Source: a virus
Virus record (IMG/VR): IMGVR_UViG_3300045988_144418
Span: 32,001 to 96,000 of that record
DNA: 64,000 nt
Direction: 5' to 3' (one strand)
The position numbers and the translations under genes are program-made. Below are positions 10,912 through 45,431 of this stretch, piece after piece. Position 1 is the first letter of the stretch. Each line of letters opens with the position of its first letter. The notes beneath the pieces are model-generated. The model was given only the letters and a program-made list of their open reading frames with translations. It was not told where the DNA came from and searched no databases.

Positions 10912-11307
10912 ATGGGTGTAAAGGGAGTTTGTCGTAAGTGTGGACGTGAGACAGTGATAGTTAATAAGACGCACTGTTTGTGTAGTGGCTGTAATTATAG
11001 GCGACTGCATAATGGTCTGTCACGGTTTGAATATAAGTTTATGACGATGAAGTTTCCGGAGCGAGCACGGAAAAAGCGTACTGGGGAGGCGGAGCTTTTT
11101 AGGGAGATATGGGCGGAGCGACCACACATTTGTTCACATTGTGGCCGACAGCTTCCTCCTCCTATGCGAGCAGGTTATTTCAGCCATATTCATTCCAAGG
11201 GGGCAAGACCTGACTTGCGGCTTTGCAAGGATAATATAGAATTGTTATGTCTGGAGTGTCATTCACGGCACGAATTTGGATTTAATTATGAAAGAGATTC
11301 TCATTAA
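10912..11307 (+). CDS. HNH endonuclease
   Basis: Two CxxC pairs (CRKCG, CSGC) plus HSKGARPDLRLCKDNIELLCLECH (H-N-H core); ATG at 10912 directly after upstream TGA; track ORF 10825 is an overlapping N-terminal extension. Confidence 0.75.
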   Translation: MGVKGVCRKCGRETVIVNKTHCLCSGCNYRRLHNGLSRFEYKFMTMKFPERARKKRTGEAELFREIWAERPHICSHCGRQLPPPMRAGYFSHIHSKGARPDLRLCKDNIELLCLECHSRHEFGFNYERDSH

Positions 11308-30742: not shown

Positions 30743-32737
30743 ATGAGGCTGGAAACGTTAAGATTAAAGAATTTTCTCTCTTTTAAGGAATTGAACCATA
30801 CATTTCGTAATGGGGCAATCCTTATACAGGGGCGCAACCTTACGGAGGACAGTAAGGAGACAAACGGTGCAGGAAAGTCAACGATGGAAGCAGGAATCTC
30901 CTATGCGTTGATGGCCACACCACTTCGTAAGCAGACACTTGATAGAGATTTGATAAGGTGGGGTGAGGATGAAGCGGAGATTGAACTGACGGTGTTCTGT
31001 CCAGTGCGTAGTCAGCGACTACGTATATTTAGGAGGATACGTGTTAAGGGGTCAGCGACACTGGAACTGTACCTGAATGAACAGTCTGTGCAGTTTGCTT
31101 CCGTGCTGGAGGGTAATAGGTATATTCTGGACTGGATAGCGATAACACCTGAGGACTTGAAGTCCTTTTACATCCTGAACAAGGAGAACTACAAGTCATT
31201 TTTGAGCGCATCCAACACGGACAAGCTCGCTTTGATCAATCGTTTTATGAAAGCGGAGCGACTGGAGGCGGCTGATGATGTCATAAAGGAGCAAAGTGCT
31301 CCTTATGTTGAGAAGCGTGATGCGGCTCAGAGAAAGGTCTTTTCCATTGAAGGCGAATTAAACGCCTATAAGGGTCAGTTGGTCTATGAGCAGTCCCGTA
31401 ACCTTGATGAGGAGCTGGAGCAGCAGGTGGCGACGATTAACGAGCAAATAGAGCAGTATGGGCGGAAGATTCAGGCATGTGATGATGATAGTAGGCGAGT
31501 GGAGAAATCCAGGGGTGAAGTTGAAGCCGATATCACGCAGAGGAGGGAAAGCCTGGACACGGTGAAGCGGTCACTCGAAGCGATGGTCGCCGACAACAGC
31601 CTTGAACGGCAGAAGGAATCCATTAGGCAGGAGCGTCAAGGGTTGGACAATGCCGCCTTTGAAGCCAGAAACTTTCGCAGTGAGGAACATAGACAACTTG
31701 ATGAAACGAACAGAAAGTTGGCTGAACTAAACAAAATGCTTGCAGGTGTGGTCACGTGTCCACACTGTCATCACAGATTCCTACTTAATGATACGGAACG
31801 TTCTGTTGCTGAACTGGAGAATGAGAAAGTTGCTGTAACATACGATGTGGACGCTCACAGTAGTGCAATAGAGGAGGTTAATGCGGTGCTTGATGAACTT
31901 GCGGCTGATCTTTCCACTTATGACTGCAAGGAAAAGGAGCTTGCTGAAGCGATGAACAGGCGTGATGCTGAGATGTCAACATTGCGTAGGCAGGTGGCTG
32001 ACGCCGAGCGTGTTATCTATGCCAAGGAGGCCGTATTGGGTCAGTGCAGTGAAACTGTTAGGCGTAATAACTCCACCATTGAAAGTCTGCGGAAGGACAT
32101 TCAGCAGGAACAGCAAAGGATTGCTGTGCTTATGGAGGATGGTATTCAGACCAAGGTCGAGGATTATAAGGGACTGATAACCCTGACAGAGAAGAAGCTG
32201 GATCGTGCTCAGAAGGAACTTGAAAAGGCGGAGGGTGAGCTTGGAGAACTTCAGCAGTGGGGTCAGCGGTTTAAGGACTTCAGAATGTCACTTGCCTGTG
32301 GACAGTTAAAGGTTATTCAGGATGTGGCCAATCTGTCCCTGGAAAGGCAGAAGTCTGAGCTTCGTGTGTCCATTGACGGCTTTAAGGTGAACGCCAAGGG
32401 TCAGATCAAGAGTGAGATTACGGTGCTTGTTATTAACGGTGAGGGTGAGTATAAGAGTTTCTGGTCGTACAGTGGCGGTGAGCGTGCCAGAGTGGAGATG
32501 GCTATGATTCAGGCCTTTCAGGAAATGCTGAATGCTACCAATCCTTATGGTGGGCTGGATTTTTTGATGATTGATGAAGTGCTGGAGGGGACTGACCCTC
32601 TTGGCTTGAACCTACTTATTGAATCGTTGAAGGATGTTGAAAATCCAGTTTATATCATTAGTCACGTGATGAACATTAAGGCTGGAGTGCCGACCTTGAC
32701 TATCACGAAGGAAAACGGTATAAGCAGAATAGAATGA
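30743..32737 (+). CDS. sbcC: SbcC/Rad50-like ATPase
   Basis: Walker A NGAGKST, long coiled coil with central CPHC zinc hook, ABC signature YSGGERARV, Walker B FLMIDEV. Confidence 0.8.
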   Translation: MRLETLRLKNFLSFKELNHTFRNGAILIQGRNLTEDSKETNGAGKSTMEAGISYALMATPLRKQTLDRDLIRWGEDEAEIELTVFCPVRSQRLRIFRRIRVKGSATLELYLNEQSVQFASVLEGNRYILDWIAITPEDLKSFYILNKENYKSFLSASNTDKLALINRFMKAERLEAADDVIKEQSAPYVEKRDAAQRKVFSIEGELNAYKGQLVYEQSRNLDEELEQQVATINEQIEQYGRKIQACDDDSRRVEKSRGEVEADITQRRESLDTVKRSLEAMVADNSLERQKESIRQERQGLDNAAFEARNFRSEEHRQLDETNRKLAELNKMLAGVVTCPHCHHRFLLNDTERSVAELENEKVAVTYDVDAHSSAIEEVNAVLDELAADLSTYDCKEKELAEAMNRRDAEMSTLRRQVADAERVIYAKEAVLGQCSETVRRNNSTIESLRKDIQQEQQRIAVLMEDGIQTKVEDYKGLITLTEKKLDRAQKELEKAEGELGELQQWGQRFKDFRMSLACGQLKVIQDVANLSLERQKSELRVSIDGFKVNAKGQIKSEITVLVINGEGEYKSFWSYSGGERARVEMAMIQAFQEMLNATNPYGGLDFLMIDEVLEGTDPLGLNLLIESLKDVENPVYIISHVMNIKAGVPTLTITKENGISRIE

Positions 32738-33891: not shown

Positions 33892-33938
33892 TATAATCGA
33901 TGTGAAATGATTAAATTTGGGTCGTATATTAATGCTTT

Positions 33939-34562
33939 ATGATGATGAATACGACACAGATTGTAAGTTCGGCGATTGATACAGGCAAGGCGATTGGCGA
34001 CGTTGGTATGATGGCCGTTACGGCTGGATTTTTTCTTGTTCTTTCCGGGATTTTGATGGTGGTGTGCTTTAAGTGGTTCATTCGCCTGATTAATAGCATG
34101 CTTCAGGATCAGAAACGAACGATGGAAGAACTCTTGAAGGAGACACGAGATCAAAATTCAAAACTTGCGGAACTATCAGAATGTCTTGCTCCTGGAAATC
34201 AGTTAAAGACAAAAGTGATTTCAAATGCTTTCTTTGATTTAGGTGTCGAAAAGGTTTGCCGTGTTATCAAAAAGGTTAGGGCAGAAAATCACATTGTTGA
34301 CAGGGAAACAACAACGGCAAAGGTTCATAAATTGCTGAAGAATTTGCATGATGACAGGAATAGTAAACTGGATTCATTTACTTATTTAGGCCGACCTCTT
34401 TCAAGTTACACTGATGAAAAATGGGTTGTTAAGGTTGCGGAAGTCGTTCTTAGCGAAATTTATAATGAAAATGGAGCTAATGATGAAAGAGCCTGTACAA
34501 ATGTTACAGCCGTGTATGATCAAATAAAGTTGGATTTTTATAGTAATATGATGCAGAGATAG
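33939..34562 (+). CDS. hypothetical membrane-anchored protein
   Basis: 207 aa; N-terminal hydrophobic helix MMAVTAGFFLVLSGILMVVCF. Confidence 0.55.
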   Translation: MMMNTTQIVSSAIDTGKAIGDVGMMAVTAGFFLVLSGILMVVCFKWFIRLINSMLQDQKRTMEELLKETRDQNSKLAELSECLAPGNQLKTKVISNAFFDLGVEKVCRVIKKVRAENHIVDRETTTAKVHKLLKNLHDDRNSKLDSFTYLGRPLSSYTDEKWVVKVAEVVLSEIYNENGANDERACTNVTAVYDQIKLDFYSNMMQR

Positions 34563-34564
34563 TT

Positions 34565-34672
34565 ATGGGTCTTTTTGAATTTATAGCTAAATCACGTTCT
34601 GGAGTTTATAAGAATACTTCAGAAAATCGTAGACTCCATCGTGTGGGGCAAAGATATGGTGAGCAGAGGCAA
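34565..34672 (+). repeat. shared N-terminal leader, copy 1 (MGLFEFIAKSRSGVYKNTSENRRLHRVGQRYGEQRQ)
   Basis: About 26 of 36 residues identical to copy 2, with many synonymous nucleotide differences. Confidence 0.8.
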
Positions 34673-35698
34673 CTGGCGGATGAGGGTGAACTGATTCCAG
34701 GAATGCCTAATTTCACCAAGGTGAATCTGAAGAAGTATTTGTCTGACAAGATAAAGAAACAGGTGGATGACTATATTGTTAATGTCTCAACCACTCCAGG
34801 ATGGAATAATCCTGAGCAGGTCTCCCTTATGGTAAAAGTTGTGCAGAAGCACTTCAATGAAGCTTTTGATGATATGACCAAGGCGCAGAGAGCCTACTGG
34901 GTGGAATTGGCAAAGCGGCTTTTGGGGCGAATGGAATCTCTTAATGCAGGTGGCGACAAGGAGGAATCCGTTAAGCCTGAAGAGACACCAAAGCCTACAT
35001 TGAAGGAACGTGTTGACAATTTTGAACAGAAGGAAAAAGCGAAGAATATCTTTGAACAGGCAGCACAGAAGTACGGAATTGAACATGGTAAGCCGATGTC
35101 CATTGATAGAGCTGATCGTAAGCACGCCAACCCGAAATTTCTGACGCTTGTAGATGGAAGTTTTCGTCCATACACTTCAAACTGTCAGACCTGTGTGGTT
35201 GCCTATGAACTTCGTAAGAGGGGTTATGACGTTGAAGCAAAGGGTGTTGGTGTTAAGCCGAAGTCCTATGTAAATAATTTTCAAAGAGAAATGGCCTATG
35301 ATAGTACCTTTGCTTTTGCTGATAAGGATATAGATCTTATTAGGCCGAACTTTACAGGTGAGATTAAGTTCAATACGGATAAGGGTCGTAGGCAGTTTCG
35401 AATGAAAATTTTTGACGCCATAAAAGAGCAGGGAACTTATTTCTTATCTTTTAAGAACAAGGGGCGTCAGAGTGGTCATATTGTGGTGCTTGAACACACG
35501 ACTAATAATTTTTTGTTGATAGATCCACAGTCCAATAGAAGAATTGATCTTAAATCTGACGAATTCATGCAGTATCTTGCTGGAGTGGATGTTACACATA
35601 AAAATAATAGACTATTTAGGGTGAATGACTTGACATTCAAACCTGAGGTATTTTCTGTGATGGAAAAGGCAAATACAGAACCAGATATATATGATTAA
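34565..35698 (+). CDS. leader-bearing payload protein 1: C-terminal papain-like (Cys/His) polymorphic-toxin-like domain
   Basis: N-terminal 36 aa are paralogous to the 35985 gene; C-terminal YTSNCQTCVVAYELRKRGYDV ... RQSGHIVVLEH suggests a Cys-His catalytic pair (inference). Confidence 0.45.
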   Translation: MGLFEFIAKSRSGVYKNTSENRRLHRVGQRYGEQRQLADEGELIPGMPNFTKVNLKKYLSDKIKKQVDDYIVNVSTTPGWNNPEQVSLMVKVVQKHFNEAFDDMTKAQRAYWVELAKRLLGRMESLNAGGDKEESVKPEETPKPTLKERVDNFEQKEKAKNIFEQAAQKYGIEHGKPMSIDRADRKHANPKFLTLVDGSFRPYTSNCQTCVVAYELRKRGYDVEAKGVGVKPKSYVNNFQREMAYDSTFAFADKDIDLIRPNFTGEIKFNTDKGRRQFRMKIFDAIKEQGTYFLSFKNKGRQSGHIVVLEHTTNNFLLIDPQSNRRIDLKSDEFMQYLAGVDVTHKNNRLFRVNDLTFKPEVFSVMEKANTEPDIYD

Positions 35699-35927
35699 TG
35701 AAAAGGATATTTTGAAAATCTGCGAAGCGGCAGGTTGGAAAGGCGGCGAACTGATTTACGGTGGGTTTGCTGACGGCAAGTATTATGTCTCCTATGGAGC
35801 TGAGAGTGACGGTGCAGAACTTGCGTGTGTGGGCGCTCCTATAATTCTTGTCGTGGAGAACGGCAGATGTAGGACAGCTACTGACAAGGAATGGGTTTAT
35901 TTTTATGAAAATTTTGTGAAAGATTAA
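35691..35927 (+). CDS. small ORF coupled to payload 1 (immunity/antidote-like by position)
   Basis: 78 aa; its ATG overlaps the last codons of the upstream gene. Confidence 0.45.
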   Translation: MINEKDILKICEAAGWKGGELIYGGFADGKYYVSYGAESDGAELACVGAPIILVVENGRCRTATDKEWVYFYENFVKD

Positions 35928-35936
35928 GGATTAATC

Positions 35937-35967
35937 CTTGGATATTTCAGAATAATGATTATATTTG
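35937..35967 (+). promoter_or_regulatory. early promoter cassette P3
   Basis: CTTGGATATTTCAGAA ... TATATTTG; preceded by the palindrome GGATTAATCC. Confidence 0.65.
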
Positions 35968-35984
35968 CGTAGTAAAATTCAATT

Positions 35985-36092
35985 ATGGGTTTATTTGAAT
36001 ACATAGTTAAGTCCAGATCAGGTGTCTATAAGGATAATTCTGAAAATAGGCGGCTTCACAGGGCTGGACTGCAATATGGTCAGAAAAAGCAG
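35985..36092 (+). repeat. shared N-terminal leader, copy 2 (MGLFEYIVKSRSGVYKDNSENRRLHRAGLQYGQKKQ)
   Basis: Paralogous to 34565-34672 at the protein level. Confidence 0.8.
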
Positions 36093-36713
36093 CAGGAAAG
36101 CGTTCCTGATGTAAACAAGAAGGATCTTGAACTTGCGGAAGCAAAGGTTAAGAAAATGCTTGTCGTGAAGCAGAACTTTGATGATGTTTCACAGGCGGTG
36201 TGTCAGGAGGTTGGCTGTATTGTTTCTCCTACTAATATTAAAAAGCCCGTAAGAATTGCTCAGAAAATGGCTTCTGATGGTTCTACTATTGATGAGATTA
36301 AGGATGTTATGCGTAACACCTTTGTTGTTAATAGTGACGATGATGTTGGCAAGGTTATAGAAGCCATATCCAAGCATTATAAAGTTGTTAGGGTAAAGTA
36401 TCAAACGCCCGACAGGTTCGCTGGATATAGCGGCAATATTGTCAATGTGGAGCTTCCTAATGATGAAATTGGTGAAATGCAGGTGAATACGCCACAAATG
36501 ATATTTGGCAAGGAAGTTGAACGTGATGCCAGAATGATTTTGGGTGATGGCCTATGGGAACGATTGAAAGCCAATGCAGGAAATCTTATTCCAGGACTTG
36601 GTCATAGGATGTATGAGGTGCTTCGGGATGATTCCATTGACGATGAAAGGCTTGATATTGTCGAACGCAATAGTAGAATTTATTATGATAGAATTAGAAA
36701 GATTTCGCTATGA
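35985..36713 (+). CDS. leader-bearing payload protein 2: RelA/SpoT-homologue nucleotidyl/pyrophosphotransferase (small alarmone synthetase or toxSAS-like)
   Basis: Synthetase-fold pattern by eye: IKKPVRIAQKM, IKDVMRNTFVV, AGYSGNIVNVEL, IGEMQVNTPQM (compare GY.s.H and E.Q.RT..Q); driven by promoter cassette P3. Confidence 0.55.
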   Translation: MGLFEYIVKSRSGVYKDNSENRRLHRAGLQYGQKKQQESVPDVNKKDLELAEAKVKKMLVVKQNFDDVSQAVCQEVGCIVSPTNIKKPVRIAQKMASDGSTIDEIKDVMRNTFVVNSDDDVGKVIEAISKHYKVVRVKYQTPDRFAGYSGNIVNVELPNDEIGEMQVNTPQMIFGKEVERDARMILGDGLWERLKANAGNLIPGLGHRMYEVLRDDSIDDERLDIVERNSRIYYDRIRKISL

Positions 36714-36958
36714 GAACTGTAACTAACAAGGAACTGGGGGAGTTGCTCCGCTCCAATGAAATGGTCTATCTTCTGGACGACACTGATGAAATCGCATGGG
36801 GATTTCTCGGTGATGGAAAGAACCGTAGAAGAGTGGTGAGCAAGGCAAAGGGCAGGGAACCTGTTGAGCACAATCCCAAGCAGCAGAACTCCAATAGTAT
36901 GATTCGTGCCTATCTGAATAAGGATGTGATGACCAAGGAGGAGTTTGAAAACTATTAG
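36710..36958 (+). CDS. small ORF coupled to the RelA/SpoT-like gene (antitoxin/immunity-like by position)
   Basis: 82 aa; ATGA stop/start overlap. Confidence 0.45.
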   Translation: MRTVTNKELGELLRSNEMVYLLDDTDEIAWGFLGDGKNRRRVVSKAKGREPVEHNPKQQNSNSMIRAYLNKDVMTKEEFENY

Positions 36959-36965
36959 AATTTTC

Positions 36966-36996
36966 CTTGGAAATTCAAGAACAATGACTATATTTG
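36966..36996 (+). promoter_or_regulatory. early promoter cassette P4
   Basis: CTTGGAAATTCAAGAA ... TATATTTG. Confidence 0.65.
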
Positions 36997-37009
36997 CACT
37001 GTGAAAATT

Positions 37010-37027
37010 AAAAATGATTTTGTTATG
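37010..37027 (+). promoter_or_regulatory. start-codon-abutting motif (AAAAATGATTTTGTTATG)
   Basis: Recurrent motif ending in the ATG; here it lies downstream of cassette P4. Confidence 0.35.
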
Positions 37028-37477
37028 ATTAAGATTGTCACTAAATCTCAGGACAGATTTCGTCAGGCCGTTGAAATAGCTGTCCAGGCACATCAGGGTC
37101 AGGTTGACCGAAATGGTGTTCCGTATATCTGTCATTCTATTGCCGTTGCTCAAAAGTGCTCATTCTATACAGCCAAGTGTGTGGCTATGCTTCACGATGT
37201 GCTGGAGGACACGGAGGTTACGGCACAGGATCTATTTAAGATGGGTGTTGAGGAATATATCATTGAATGTGTGGAAAAATTGACGCACGATCCAAAGGTT
37301 CCATATCTGGATTATATTCAAAGCATAATTGACACCAGAGATGCTAATATCATATCGGTTAAGTACGCTGATCTATGTGATAATCTCGATCCTACGAGGG
37401 GTGGAATGAATGAAAAGAAAGTGCCTCTGTATCGCAAGGCCAGAAGAATGATGGAGGAAGCATTATGTTTCATATAG
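37025..37477 (+). CDS. small alarmone hydrolase (SpoT/RelA-type HD domain)
   Basis: AVEIAVQAHQGQVDRNGVPYICHSIAVAQ ... AMLHDVLEDTEVT is the (p)ppGpp-hydrolase HD signature; has its own promoter cassette P4. Confidence 0.75.
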   Translation: MIKIVTKSQDRFRQAVEIAVQAHQGQVDRNGVPYICHSIAVAQKCSFYTAKCVAMLHDVLEDTEVTAQDLFKMGVEEYIIECVEKLTHDPKVPYLDYIQSIIDTRDANIISVKYADLCDNLDPTRGGMNEKKVPLYRKARRMMEEALCFI

Positions 37478-39399
37478 AACTAAGAAATGAAATCCTCCGT
37501 TTGAATTCTCTGTATAGGCAGGGCAAGCCGGAGGTCAGTGATGTTGAGTACGATTCACTTGTGGAGCAACTGAGGGCTATATCTCCTGATGATGATTTCT
37601 TCAAGTCTGGTGTTGCTGAAAAGGCAACGGATAGAATGCAGAAACTCCCTCTTCCTATGTTTTCTCTGGAGAAAATAAAGACGTTTAAGGAGTTTTTGAC
37701 GTGGGTTGATAGGATGGTTATGGCTGGGTGTAAAAATCTCGTAATAACGCCTAAATATGACGGAATAAGTCTTCTTATCAGTGAACTGTCACAGGCTGCC
37801 TGGACAAGGGGTGACGGTGTGCAGGGTCAGCGGAGTGACGCACACTTTTCACGAATGAAGAATGGTGAGGTTGAACAGCCTGTGTTTGAATACATATGGG
37901 GTGAAGCTATCTGTTCCAAAAAGGATTTTGAATCCGTTAAGGGTGAGTACAAGAATGCTCGCAATATGGTTGCAGGTTTGTTCAATTCTCCTATGGGGGC
38001 TAATACAGAACAGATAGGGGCTGTCACCTTTGTAAGGTATGGCATTGATTCTGATGAAAATAAATCCGTTCAACTGGATTATCTTAATGGTCGTTACCAA
38101 TATACTACAACATACAGACTGATACAGATTGAAAACATTCTTATGTATAATGAGAATGATGTGCTGGATATGTTGGATAGGTTTTATAGAGAATGGAAGC
38201 TGGAGTATCAAATAGACGGTCTGGTGATTGAAGCTAATGAAAACAGTGTTCGAAAGAAGCTGGGTCGTAAGCCGAATGGAAATCCTGACTATGCTATTGC
38301 ATTTAAGAGGGAGGAGTGGTTGCAGTTCTATACAACGACCGTGGAAAAGGTTGAATGGAATGTTAGCAAGGATGGCTGTCTGTGTCCTGTGGTATGCGTA
38401 AAGCCTGTTGAAATGGAGAGTGCTACTGTTTCCAAGGTGACAGGGTATAATGCTAAATATATTCTTGACAATCATATTGCAGGTGGTTCTACAATAGACA
38501 TCATTCGTAGTGGCGACGTCATTCCAAAGCACATTAGAACACTTGGTTATTCTCCAGAAATATGTTCGAAGGAATTTCCTACTGTCTGTCCATGCTGTGG
38601 TAAGCCTGTTCAATGGGATGCTACGCATACTGAGCTTGTATGTGTGAATGAGAACTGTAAACAGCAGGTCATTTCTCGTATGGTGTATTTCTTCAGGACG
38701 ATGGGCTGCGAGGGTTTTGATGAACCTATTGTACGTCGCCTGTATGACGCTGGAATGGATAGTGTTCAGCTTGTTGTGGCAAGTAGGTCAATGGCATTTA
38801 TGCACATACTTGGGGAGAACAAGGGGCTGGCTGTGTATAATGAGATTCAGAATAGGGTGCTTAATACAAAGAACCCTGTCGCAAGACTTATGACTGCATA
38901 TAATGTTTTTGGAGGCGTTCTTGCCGAAAAGACGGCTCAAAGCATTATAGATGGCAGTGAAGCAGTTCAATATCTGTTGGATATCCATGAACCTATCAGG
39001 GATAATGATATTCTGGCAGATATTCTGGCAGTTCTTCGTGCGGAGCTTTGTTCTATTCCTGGTGTGGGTGCTGTCACGGCTGATACATTCATCACAGGTA
39101 TGAATAAGTTTTTGGATATGAGATGCCTGTATCTTTATTACATTTGCACTCCTAAGAAAATTTTGGCTGACAACTGTATGTATGTCTGCATGACAGGTTT
39201 TAGGGATAAGGAACTGGAGAATGAGCTTATAAAACAGGGACATGAGGTTCTGAATGGCGTTACGGCCAAGTGTACAGTTCTTGTGGTGGCTGATTTGAAT
39301 TCAACAAGCAGTAAGATGCAAAAGGCTCAGAAGATGGGAATTCGTATTGTGGACAGAAAGACATTTGAAAATGAAATATACGGCAAAGAAAATAAGTAA
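37465..39399 (+). CDS. ligA: NAD-dependent DNA ligase
   Basis: Adenylation KxDG (TPKYDGISL), DGLVIEA, Cys4 zinc finger CPCCGK...CVNENC, C-terminal BRCT-like MTGFRDKELE...VLVVAD. Confidence 0.9.
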   Translation: MFHIELRNEILRLNSLYRQGKPEVSDVEYDSLVEQLRAISPDDDFFKSGVAEKATDRMQKLPLPMFSLEKIKTFKEFLTWVDRMVMAGCKNLVITPKYDGISLLISELSQAAWTRGDGVQGQRSDAHFSRMKNGEVEQPVFEYIWGEAICSKKDFESVKGEYKNARNMVAGLFNSPMGANTEQIGAVTFVRYGIDSDENKSVQLDYLNGRYQYTTTYRLIQIENILMYNENDVLDMLDRFYREWKLEYQIDGLVIEANENSVRKKLGRKPNGNPDYAIAFKREEWLQFYTTTVEKVEWNVSKDGCLCPVVCVKPVEMESATVSKVTGYNAKYILDNHIAGGSTIDIIRSGDVIPKHIRTLGYSPEICSKEFPTVCPCCGKPVQWDATHTELVCVNENCKQQVISRMVYFFRTMGCEGFDEPIVRRLYDAGMDSVQLVVASRSMAFMHILGENKGLAVYNEIQNRVLNTKNPVARLMTAYNVFGGVLAEKTAQSIIDGSEAVQYLLDIHEPIRDNDILADILAVLRAELCSIPGVGAVTADTFITGMNKFLDMRCLYLYYICTPKKILADNCMYVCMTGFRDKELENELIKQGHEVLNGVTAKCTVLVVADLNSTSSKMQKAQKMGIRIVDRKTFENEIYGKENK

Positions 39400-43814: not shown

Positions 43815-45431
43815 ATGAACACAAGAATTCTTTTTGGAAAGGACGCAAGAGCAGCTCTGCTCGCTGGAGCGGAGGAGCTCTATTCAGCGGTGGCGTCCAC
43901 ACTCGGACCGAGAGGTCACACGGTTGCGATTGATAAGGGGTACGGCATACCTCATATCACCAAGGATGGTGTGACGGTGGCTCGTGCCTATGACATTGAT
44001 GATCCGATGAAGCGAATGGGCGCAACACTCGTTAAGATGGTGGCTGCAAAGACCTGTGATCAAGCAGGTGACGGAACCACCACGGCCACGATATTGTCCT
44101 ACGCTATGATGAAGCGTGGTGTGTGTGGCTCGGTGAACATACAGAATCCGCATGAGTATCGCAGAGGTATGGAAGACGCACTGGATGAGGCTGTCAGCTA
44201 TATTAAGTCCAGTGCTGTAAAGATAGAGCCTGACGAGATTGACAAAATCAGACAGGTGGCCAAGGTGTCAGCCAACGGTGATGATATGGTGGCTGATCTT
44301 ATTACATCGGCGATAGAGAGTGTCGGCAATGACGGCATCATTACCGTTGAGGAGAGCACCAAGGGAGATGAATCCACGGTGGAGGTTACAACTGGCTTTC
44401 AGTGGAGTAAGGGGATTATAAATCCATATTTTGTTACTGACAGTGAGCGAATGGAGTGTGTTCTGGATAAGCCGTATGTTCTTATCTGGGGTCAAAACAT
44501 CAATTATGTTCAGGAGATTCTTGCTGTGGTGCAGACTGTATATACAGCCAAGAGATCCCTTTTGATTGTAGCTCCAAACGCTTCCAATGACGTGATAAAG
44601 TTTCTTGTCACAAACGTTCAGCAGAATAACGGTCTAAAGGCATGTTTTGTAAAGGCTCCAGGATTCGGTCAGATGCAGAAAGACTTGATGCAGGATTTGG
44701 CTGTAAAGGTGGGCGGCAAAATTGTTGGTGAGGAATACGGTAATGCCATGGAGTCATTTGGAACTGACTGGCTTGGTGAGGTGGACAAGGCCACAATCTC
44801 AGCCAATAGAACCGTTCTCGTGGGCGGTGCTGGAAAGTCTGTGGATATAGATGCTCGAATAGAATTCATCAGGAATGAAATGGCTGAAAACTCCAACACC
44901 TATGATAGAGAAAAGTATAGAGAGCGCATCAGTCGTCTTACAGGCGGTGCGGCTGTCATCTATGTAGGTGCGGACAGTGAAGTGGAGATGAATGAGCGCA
45001 AGGATAGAGTGGATGACGCCATTGCGGCCACCAGAGCCGCTCTTGATGAGGGTTATGTTCCGGGAGGGGGGACAATTCAGTATAAGATAGCCAAGATTCT
45101 GGAAAGGTCACTGGATGACAACCCAAAATGGAGCACCGATTATTTGGAGGGCTACCGTACTGTGATTGATGCCCTGAAGAAACACTTTCACATTCTATGT
45201 GAGAATGCAGGAGTGGAGCCTATTCGGATTGAGGTTATGATGGACTTGAAGTCCACGGCATTACAGCAGGGCTACAATCCATTTACTAACAGTATAGAGG
45301 ATATGTATAAGGCTGGCGTGATAGATCCAGCCAAGGTCACACGAACATCACTGGAGAATGCTGTGTCGGTGGCCGTTCAGTTCCTCGGTATGTCGTGCGC
45401 TATGTCAGGTGAGGAGGCTAAGAAAGTATGA
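43815..45431 (+). CDS. groEL: GroEL-type chaperonin (Cpn60)
   Basis: AVASTLGPRGHTVAIDKGYG.PHITKDGVTVA, DQAGDGTTTATIL, VGADSEVEMNERKDRVDDA, GGG motif; 538 aa. Confidence 0.9.
   Translation: MNTRILFGKDARAALLAGAEELYSAVASTLGPRGHTVAIDKGYGIPHITKDGVTVARAYDIDDPMKRMGATLVKMVAAKTCDQAGDGTTTATILSYAMMKRGVCGSVNIQNPHEYRRGMEDALDEAVSYIKSSAVKIEPDEIDKIRQVAKVSANGDDMVADLITSAIESVGNDGIITVEESTKGDESTVEVTTGFQWSKGIINPYFVTDSERMECVLDKPYVLIWGQNINYVQEILAVVQTVYTAKRSLLIVAPNASNDVIKFLVTNVQQNNGLKACFVKAPGFGQMQKDLMQDLAVKVGGKIVGEEYGNAMESFGTDWLGEVDKATISANRTVLVGGAGKSVDIDARIEFIRNEMAENSNTYDREKYRERISRLTGGAAVIYVGADSEVEMNERKDRVDDAIAATRAALDEGYVPGGGTIQYKIAKILERSLDDNPKWSTDYLEGYRTVIDALKKHFHILCENAGVEPIRIEVMMDLKSTALQQGYNPFTNSIEDMYKAGVIDPAKVTRTSLENAVSVAVQFLGMSCAMSGEEAKKV

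Follow-up and report, generated by a model that had tools for sequence, protein, structure and literature searches.

A 64,000-nucleotide (nt) stretch of viral DNA (positions 32,001 to 96,000 of IMG/VR virus record IMGVR_UViG_3300045988_144418; hereafter the window) carries two neighbouring genes, g1 and g2, whose products begin with a closely similar peptide of 36 residues and are otherwise unrelated. The question raised by this locus is why two different enzymes should share so short a leader. An earlier, sequence-only reading had proposed that the constant N-terminus, the variable toxic C-terminus and a small coupled open reading frame (ORF) behind each gene form a polymorphic toxin/immunity cassette, and that the leader may direct both enzymes into the virion. 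Our analysis favours this composite explanation, to which we assign a probability of about 0.6. Taken separately, the toxin/immunity cassette is very probable, and targeting of its products to the virion by the leader stands at roughly even odds. The genes and domains concerned are as follows.

34565..35698, + strand: g1, 377 amino acids (aa); leader, helical 'VNLKKYLS' module, linker and papain-fold Gln_amidase toxin domain
34565..34672, + strand: leader copy 1, 36 aa, the N-terminus of g1 (pairwise alignment; leader-profile match of 90.9 bits)
34697..34948, + strand: second conserved module of g1, a helical bundle at aa ~45-128, 'KVNLKKYLS...FNxxFDxMxKAxRA'
35180..35536, + strand: Gln_amidase (papain fold toxin 1) domain of g1, Pfam PF15644, with conserved NCQTC...GHIV...DPQ
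35691..35927, + strand: imm1, 78 aa, predicted to give immunity to the Gln_amidase toxin; the start lies within the end of g1
35985..36713, + strand: g2, 242 aa; leader and Tas1/Apk-type (p)ppApp synthetase domain (aa 58-239, nt 36156-36701)
35985..36092, + strand: leader copy 2, 36 aa, the N-terminus of g2 (pairwise alignment; leader-profile match)
36710..36958, + strand: imm2, 82 aa, predicted to give immunity to g2 by binding; the start shares ATGA with the stop of g2
37001..37477, + strand: small Aph1-like hydrolase of (p)ppApp with an HD domain, predicted as the enzymatic antidote for g2 (PDB and PHROG matches)

The two leaders, MGLFEFIAKSRSGVYKNTSENRRLHRVGQRYGEQRQ in g1 and MGLFEYIVKSRSGVYKDNSENRRLHRAGLQYGQKKQ in g2, align by BLASTP at E=6e-16, and beyond approximately residue 40 the proteins show no meaningful similarity. 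A residue count agrees with the earlier estimate of about 26 identities in 36 positions. The same codon specifies 11 of these identical residues and different synonymous codons specify the other 15 (CGT/AGA, CGT/AGG, AGA/CGG and CTT/TTA, for instance), with 73 of 108 nt (68%) identical in the underlying DNA. Conservation of the leader therefore concerns the peptide and does not stem from a recent duplication of DNA, and the selection on the peptide that the sequence-only reading had deduced from synonymous differences is borne out by the codon comparison. A third copy was not found within the 64-kb window. The four ORFs described by that reading are all present, and both small ORFs do start inside the toxin genes: the ATG of imm1 at 35691 lies 8 nt inside g1, which stops at 35696-35698, and imm2 begins at 36710 in the ATGA overlap. 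The cassette had nevertheless been drawn too small, as the hydrolase gene, the g1 module at aa ~45-128 and a 33-nt repeat described below were omitted.

The leader defines a sizeable protein family. An exhaustive HMMER search with a 7-sequence leader profile against 1.84 billion cluster representatives returned 876 cluster matches at E<=1e-3, 221 of them at E<=1e-10, and 39 leader loci were located in IMG/VR; other genes with this beginning do exist in related phages. Among the best 148 clusters, 79 carry a single copy at the extreme N-terminus, 13 an N-terminal copy and a second one, and 32 between 1 and 3 internal copies, some of these being large multi-domain 'polyvalent-like' proteins in which the motif lies at domain junctions, as in P0022 (DUF5661 and a zincin-like motif) and P0017 (NUDIX and GNAT). 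The remaining 24 come from gastropods and are Ser/Thr kinases in which the core motif is repeated 4-13 times in tandem. The consensus of 92 N-terminal copies reads M-K-x-L-T-E-x-x-I-[E/L]-K-S-R-S-G-V-Y-x-D-T-x-E-N-R-R-L-H-R-V-G-Q-x-Y-G, followed by an acidic linker, and its distance from the protein start is nearly fixed, with the anchor Gly at residue 13-15 in 63 of the 92. AlphaFold predicts the leader alone to be disordered (predicted local distance difference test, pLDDT, <50), as expected for a docking peptide that would fold only upon binding its partner.

Candidate explanations of the leader as a signal peptide or membrane anchor were rejected on inspection, there being no hydrophobic stretch, as was an amyloid signalling motif (RHIM/BASS-like), an idea raised by the gastropod kinases, the motif being highly charged. 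In those kinases the core motif reads Y-x-D-N-x-x-N-R-x-L-G-R-V-G and is repeated with Ser-rich spacers N-terminal to the kinase domain; examples are P0008 (Biomphalaria pfeifferi KAK0061970.1), P0011 (Physella acuta XP_059146664.1) and approximately 22 further representatives. The motif would therefore be a binding peptide of a general kind.

Behind the leader, Pfam recognises Gln_amidase (5), ADPrib_exo_Tox (3), Zeta_toxin (1) and RelA_SpoT (1) payloads among 84 proteins, most of which are unannotated, and further leader-Zeta kinases were found at the loci L008, L021, L023, L027 and L053 and as gp77 of phage DAC22. Single-linkage clustering of the payloads was uninformative, mosaic common segments joining 54 of the 92 proteins in one component.

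The earlier claim that no leader of this type had been described agrees with the searches made in the libraries at hand: Pfam, PHROGs, NCBIfam and PADLOC hold no model of it, a full-text literature search within the library did not find the motif, and it did not turn up in a term search of the polyvalent-protein paper (PMC5512222). Megablast of positions 33900-37500 against the INPHARED phages gave no match, and tblastn with leader variants against cultured phages matched only the Bacteroides thetaiotaomicron DAC/SJC phages. In one of these, DAC22 (L009, MT074141.1), gp77 (a Zeta toxin), gp80 and gp82 lie near each other (L009 2938-3783, 4384-5076 and 5319 onwards) and carry a leader-like motif at residues ~25-60. 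A word-index search with the leader retrieved only 7 short proteins of 43-69 aa, frameshifted N-terminal fragments; since full-length proteins came up by the hundred in the exhaustive search, we ascribe this outcome to a prefilter that favours short targets.

The first payload belongs to a recognised toxin family. Residues 206-324 of g1 match Pfam PF15644 (Gln_amidase) at E=5.7e-8 and 34.3 bits, above the gathering cut-off of 24.1, and the papain-like Cys/His domain that had been suspected at the C-terminus is thus assigned by profile. Among homologues, NCQTC (N206, C207, Q208, C210) is invariant and GHIV is conserved. The AlphaFold (AF2) model of g1 is moderate overall (mean pLDDT 61.6); its Foldseek neighbours are papain-like toxins, deamidases and effectors such as CdiA-CT, OspI and AvrPphB, and its neighbours in BFVD include viral proteins labelled 'Papain fold toxin 1', 'minor capsid protein', 'capsid morphogenesis protein' or 'capsid maturation protease and MuF-like fusion protein'. 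The g1 module at aa ~45-128, predicted to be helical (AF2 pLDDT 72-89), matches no Pfam or PHROG family and is shared by 46 of the best 148 cluster representatives that bear the leader. PDB gave no match to a profile of imm1 homologues. BFVD also holds a 377-aa viral UniProt protein, A0A8S5VM21, that is 97% identical to g1 and carries no annotation.

For g2, aa 58-239 align with the toxin domain of Tas1, a Pseudomonas type VI secretion system (T6SS) (p)ppApp synthetase (PDB 6OX6, residues 256-435), at E=9.3e-17. Furthermore, aa 85-178 match PF04607 (RelA_SpoT) at E=1.3e-5 and 25.9 bits, just below the cut-off of 27, and the RelA/SpoT-like character ascribed to this payload by the sequence-only reading is upheld by both matches. 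The EMQVNT of g2 resembles the RSH catalytic motif, and g2 also matches the C-terminal part of phrog_7625, 'head morphogenesis'. The downstream hydrolase, of 158 aa from a GTG at 37001 or 150 aa from an ATG at 37025, contains the HD motif MLHDVLED and matches phrog_990 at E=2.6e-37. Against PDB it scores best with 7SMG, '(p)ppApp hydrolase' (Aph1; E=3e-20), ahead of every (p)ppGpp hydrolase.

This combination of genes recalls the MuF polymorphic toxins (PMC5576092; PMC10083569; PMC12226406), which are likewise phage-encoded and consist of a constant N-terminus and a variable C-terminal toxin followed by one or more immunity genes. Published MuF toxins often carry ADP-ribosyltransferase and RelA-like domains (PMC5576092), and the payload classes overlap with those found behind the leader: (p)ppApp synthetase, ADP-ribosyltransferase and, by the structural matches to capsid-protein fusions, papain-fold toxins. 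In a B. caccae prophage, a MuF-fused (p)ppApp synthetase, Apk2, is followed by a Tis1-like binding immunity protein (BcTis1) and then by Aph1, and BcTis1 and Aph1 each give partial protection (Ahmad et al. 2023, PMC10083569). In the window, g2, the 82-aa ORF and the HD hydrolase follow that order, and their enzymology is the same. The contrast that had been drawn with the much longer MuF module is therefore apt, as the second payload and its two antidotes amount to the MuF-Apk2/Tis1/Aph1 cluster without MuF. In place of the ~300-aa MuF domain there is a 36-aa leader, with or without a helical module of ~85 aa, and no MuF domain (PF04233/PF06152 or MuF3/4) was found in g1 or g2 with Pfam at E<=1, the PHROG matches falling only on the payload parts. 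Unlike MuF toxins, which occur almost exclusively on temperate phages (PMC5576092), the cassette lies in a window with no sign of lysogeny. MuF toxins also sit by portal or terminase genes; the window cassette does not, although paralogous leader genes in its clade are found two genes upstream of the portal.

The likeness to Tas1 also brings g2 close to the Tas1/Tis1 effector-immunity pair of the T6SS and to toxSAS modules. toxSAS modules reportedly pair RelA/SpoT-type toxins with small coupled antitoxins and use small alarmone hydrolases as general antidotes, both of which have counterparts here. The cassette could accordingly consist of ordinary type II toxin-antitoxin (TA) modules, or of toxSAS-like abortive-infection or superinfection-exclusion modules, with the leader acting as a handle for proteolysis or for an antitoxin or chaperone, and the overlap of toxin and antidote genes at stop and start would fit such an arrangement. 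We regard this as improbable. No PADLOC defence model matches the cassette, and the g2 domain has its nearest relatives in the Tas1/Apk clade, whose members are secreted or phage-fused. One leader precedes unrelated toxins with unrelated antidotes and is therefore not a specific antitoxin-binding site, and it is also found on long non-toxin head-module proteins and at multi-domain junctions. Furthermore, Tas1 is delivered through a PAAR/T6SS domain and TA systems have no delivery module, whereas the leader conforms to neither.

Comparison with relatives shows that the cassette site is hypervariable, which is the behaviour of a polymorphic toxin locus. Relatives that are nearly identical (for example L020; 95-100% protein identity) have the same g1-imm1-g2-imm2 cassette. 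Between the same flanking genes, L021 and L023 carry g1-imm1 and a leader-Zeta kinase, and L022 and L024 carry g1-imm1 only. At L053 the site holds a leader-Zeta protein of 492 aa and, behind it, an ORF of 78 aa, and at L008 a leader-Zeta gene takes the g1 position. In L037, L038 and L041 the Aph hydrolase comes first, followed by a g2-like gene (39% identity) and a 76-aa ORF with 26% identity to imm2, such that imm2 diverges along with g2. The architecture of constant N-terminus, variable toxic C-terminus and coupled small gene thus holds well beyond the window, with many payloads, a hypervariable site and small ORFs that travel with the toxin types.

The leader-Zeta proteins of L021 (10001-11254) and L023 (10001-11260) end in an in-frame C-terminal domain of ~107 aa, starting at approximately MEMKNDF, which in the bacterial arrays discussed below is a separate small ORF; this domain may confer immunity, either as a fusion to the toxin or after translation from an internal start.

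The cassette also contains two copies of a promoter-like repeat:

35936..35968, + strand: 33-nt promoter-like repeat copy 1, upstream of g2, ending in a TAnnTTTG-type TATATTTGC
36965..36997, + strand: second copy of the 33-nt promoter-like repeat, ahead of the hydrolase gene

The repeat, CCTTGGAWATTYMAGAAYAATGAYTATATTTGC, ends in a Bacteroidetes-type TAnnTTTG element and has exactly 2 matches in the window (0 expected by chance), only before g2 and the hydrolase gene. It is kept in the close relatives L001-L004 and was not found in the bacterial antidote islands. Together with the conserved 5' ends of the toxin genes, such an intergenic element could aid cassette shuffling, and the shared N-terminus might then be nothing but a recombination handle, or the product of a recent gene conversion, encoding a functionless peptide. 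The codons contradict this, with 15 of 26 identical residues differently encoded and 68% nt identity, as does the retention of the peptide across 876 clusters with divergent DNA, and the probability of such an origin is close to nil.

The same genomes have a second leader locus, which consists of two genes directly upstream of the portal gene, one with two internal copies of the motif and the other with an N-terminal leader on a protein of 199-724 aa. In several of the latter proteins the C-terminus is a Gln_amidase domain, and the next ORF, of 80-88 aa, resembles imm1 by eye only. Both loci were found on shared contigs for L043/L020 (a 97.9-kb contig), L045/L021, L025/L022 and L042/L023. The portal is of the SPO1/Herelleviridae type and 36% identical to that of the B. 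thetaiotaomicron DAC/SJC phages, and downstream of it lie genes for a NUDIX protein, a head maturation protease (phrog_1028) and the major capsid protein. On contig IMGVR_UViG_3300045988_142699, a putative scaffold of 261 aa is encoded in addition to the portal, the protease and the major capsid protein. The gene for P0022, a protein of 1411 aa with two motif copies, likewise belongs to a head module; it lies ahead of the major capsid gene and directly after an unannotated gene of 626 aa, possibly for the portal.

Among relatives, the length of homopolymer runs varies exactly between the trafficking module and the payload. In L046, L049 and L050, near locus position 11080, a run of A10 keeps the gene in frame (548 aa), and runs of A9 and A14 split it into ORFs of 375 or 378 aa and 173 aa. 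Other run changes (A4 to A5, A5G to A8 and a G-run) lie in L001 at ~10170, in L003 at ~10100 and in L006 at ~10120 and ~11630. Phase variation, transcriptional slippage and assembly error are all candidate causes. The window cassette genes contain no such homopolymer run.

Homologues of imm1 and imm2 were also found on contigs with the size expected of bacteria, the longest 368 kb. Five such array loci were examined, two of which come from a Bacteroidales metagenome-assembled genome (MAG; L018, CAKULN010000003.1) and a Muribaculaceae MAG (L019). All five have, in a row, an Aph-like HD gene (~37% identity to the window hydrolase), imm2 (89-90%) and imm1 (60-82%), as well as one or two copies of the ~100-aa Zeta-associated C-terminal domain (58-71% identity); the arrays lie at 4801-6888 in L014, 7287-8577 in L018 and 1549-2851 in L019. 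Neither the toxin domains nor the leader had a match in any of the five. As a set, these antidotes correspond to the toxins of the leader-bearing phage family, which supports the antidote role of the small ORFs. The presence of antidotes without toxins suggests that the toxins reach cells not carrying the phage, and thus that they probably act on phage-free cells.

These arrays are reminiscent of the AID and rAID-1 orphan-immunity clusters (bioRxiv 10.1101/471110), being likewise low in GC, toxin-less, close to a tyrosine recombinase and found in gut Bacteroidales. The L018 island, located between ispD and mreBCD, has a GC content of 40-45% as against 52-56% in its flanks, with a tyrosine recombinase ~4 kb away on the opposite strand. 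The antidotes of the arrays, however, match toxins of this phage family and not known T6SS effectors. An assignment of the arrays to rAID-1, which is defined by a 5' XerD-like recombinase and at least two co-directional downstream genes of low GC, was considered but found unjustified, as the recombinase is in the wrong orientation and the array is not co-directionally downstream of it.

Virion targeting is made plausible by several of these findings. The leader replaces MuF on the same payload classes, even within the Apk three-gene cluster; it is fixed at the N-terminus and has head-module paralogues in the same phages; and it is a predicted disordered docking peptide, for which the capsid targeting sequence (CTS) of phage T4 is a precedent. 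The T4 CTS is an N-terminal peptide of 10-19 residues that loads diverse internal proteins as well as fused foreign proteins (PMC9026906; PMC3012670). As in the T4 internal proteins IPI-III and Alt, a short N-terminal peptide here stands on otherwise unrelated, rapidly diversifying proteins, and that of T4 is portable to any cargo. The T4 internal proteins are effectors delivered with the DNA, and by analogy the same is proposed for the leader toxins. The CTS is removed by the prohead protease, gp21, which cuts after L/I-x-E, and the clade of leader phages also encodes a head maturation protease (phrog_1028). The two peptides nevertheless differ, since the leader is a conserved block of ~33 aa with no sequence homology to the CTS, and T4 internal proteins have no immunity genes whereas the leader toxins do. 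A further parallel is provided by the polyvalent proteins of phages and conjugative elements, which are predicted injected multi-effectors with RelA/SpoT, ADP-ribosyltransferase, peptidase, GNAT and NUDIX domains (PMC5512222). In P0022 and P0017 the motif lies at junctions of such proteins; g1 and g2, in contrast, each carry a single payload.

In the proposed mechanism, the leader would act as a short linear signal for docking, by which whatever cargo lies C-terminal to it is carried into the procapsid. It would take the place of the MuF domain, aided in g1 and in many other members by the helical 'VNLKKYLS' module, and the toxins would be ejected with the DNA into the next host. The papain-fold Gln_amidase toxin of g1 would be neutralised by the translationally coupled imm1. 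The g2 toxin would deplete ATP by (p)ppApp synthesis and would be neutralised both by imm2 and by breakdown of (p)ppApp through the Aph1-like hydrolase. Protection by the antidotes would cover the producing cell and, after the onset of phage gene expression, the cell newly infected. Toxicity, the pairing of toxins with antidotes, packaging, cleavage and injection are what we infer from these comparisons.

A number of observations weigh against this explanation. On the side of the antidotes, imm1 and imm2 match no Pfam immunity family and no PHROGs, NCBIfam or PADLOC model. Unlike BcTis1 in the MuF-Apk2 cluster, imm2 is not Tis1-like: it is unrelated to Tis1 in sequence (phmmer against PDB) and in predicted fold, as its confident AF2 model (pLDDT 88) has no Tis1 among the 50 best Foldseek matches. 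Its fold being different, the immunity role of imm2 is drawn from context, and for both small ORFs an antidote function is predicted from position and co-variation. On the side of the leader, no conserved cleavage site could be defined, as [LIVMF]-x-E precedes the motif in no more than 66 of 92 proteins. Its core motif is also tandem-repeated in gastropod protein kinases, and some binding property of it is therefore not capsid-specific. The peptide is strongly basic, rich in Arg, Lys and His, for which nucleic-acid binding is an equally simple reading. Finally, the window cassette lies outside the head module, among recombination and replication genes between those for RecA/SbcCD and ligase, with promoter-like elements of its own; such a setting gives no evident sign of expression late, together with proheads.

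Several of these points would equally suit toxins that are not packaged at all and serve as intracellular effectors of host takeover or anti-defence. The basic leader would then be a nucleic-acid-binding, localisation or regulatory peptide, tethering the enzymes, for example, to phage DNA or to a host complex, and the antidotes would set timing and dose. A replication-module location with promoter-like repeats of its own, the Arg, Lys and His content of the leader, and a core motif that can act outside virions in gastropod kinases all fit this alternative. For polyvalent proteins, DNA-binding anchors that 'piggyback' on injected DNA have reportedly been proposed. DNA binding and packaging are in any case not mutually exclusive. 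Left unexplained by unpackaged toxins are the extreme N-terminal position of the signal, the portal-adjacent paralogues and the overlap of payloads with MuF fusions, and the toxin-less bacterial antidote arrays are easier to explain with toxins that come from outside. We consider this alternative unlikely and retain packaging of the toxins, directed by the leader, as the preferred explanation.

The cassette belongs to a phage of gut Bacteroidales that looks lytic, measures ~100 kb and has a contractile tail; in its gene content it resembles the candidate family 'Gratiaviridae' as published. Between 12353 and 45431 the window encodes TerL, DnaB, a primase, a thymidylate synthase, DnaE, SbcCD, RecA, a NAD ligase, SNF2, UvrD and a GroEL-like chaperonin (43815-45431). 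SF1 and SF2 helicases and a baseplate are also part of the gene content of the window. The immediate flanks of the cassette are a gene for a 207-aa protein (33939-34562) on one side and the hydrolase and ligase genes on the other. An intein is present in the DnaE gene of the relative L001.

It is the N-terminal trafficking module that defines a polymorphic toxin family, and to our knowledge the only such module described so far in a phage polymorphic toxin is the ~300-aa MuF domain. The payload and hydrolase families and the logic of the cassette are already known. What appears to be new is a trafficking leader family of ~36 aa, present in hundreds of clusters, with neither model nor description in the libraries and papers searched, and apparently also the link between leader toxins and toxin-less antidote arrays in gut Bacteroidales. 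A 36-aa module with the same payload classes would be the smallest trafficking module of its kind. The packaging and injection of MuF toxins is still an open question (PMC10083569), and the leader would provide a simple experimental handle, and possibly a protein-delivery tag for the engineering of Bacteroides phages. The leader profile also serves as an annotation key for several hundred protein clusters without known function. The antidote-only arrays suggest that phage-borne toxins exert selection on gut bacteria, and they link phage effectors to an 'orphan immunity' biology so far ascribed to T6SS warfare. We advance only tentatively, at somewhat less than even odds, the furthest-reaching form of the proposal, in which the leader is a new portable signal for capsid loading and ejection, through which a large clade of Bacteroidota phages equips its virions with exchangeable toxins, and the arrays are pre-emptive anti-phage immunity against injected toxins. 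If it is true, the arrays would represent a previously unrecognised type of anti-phage defence.

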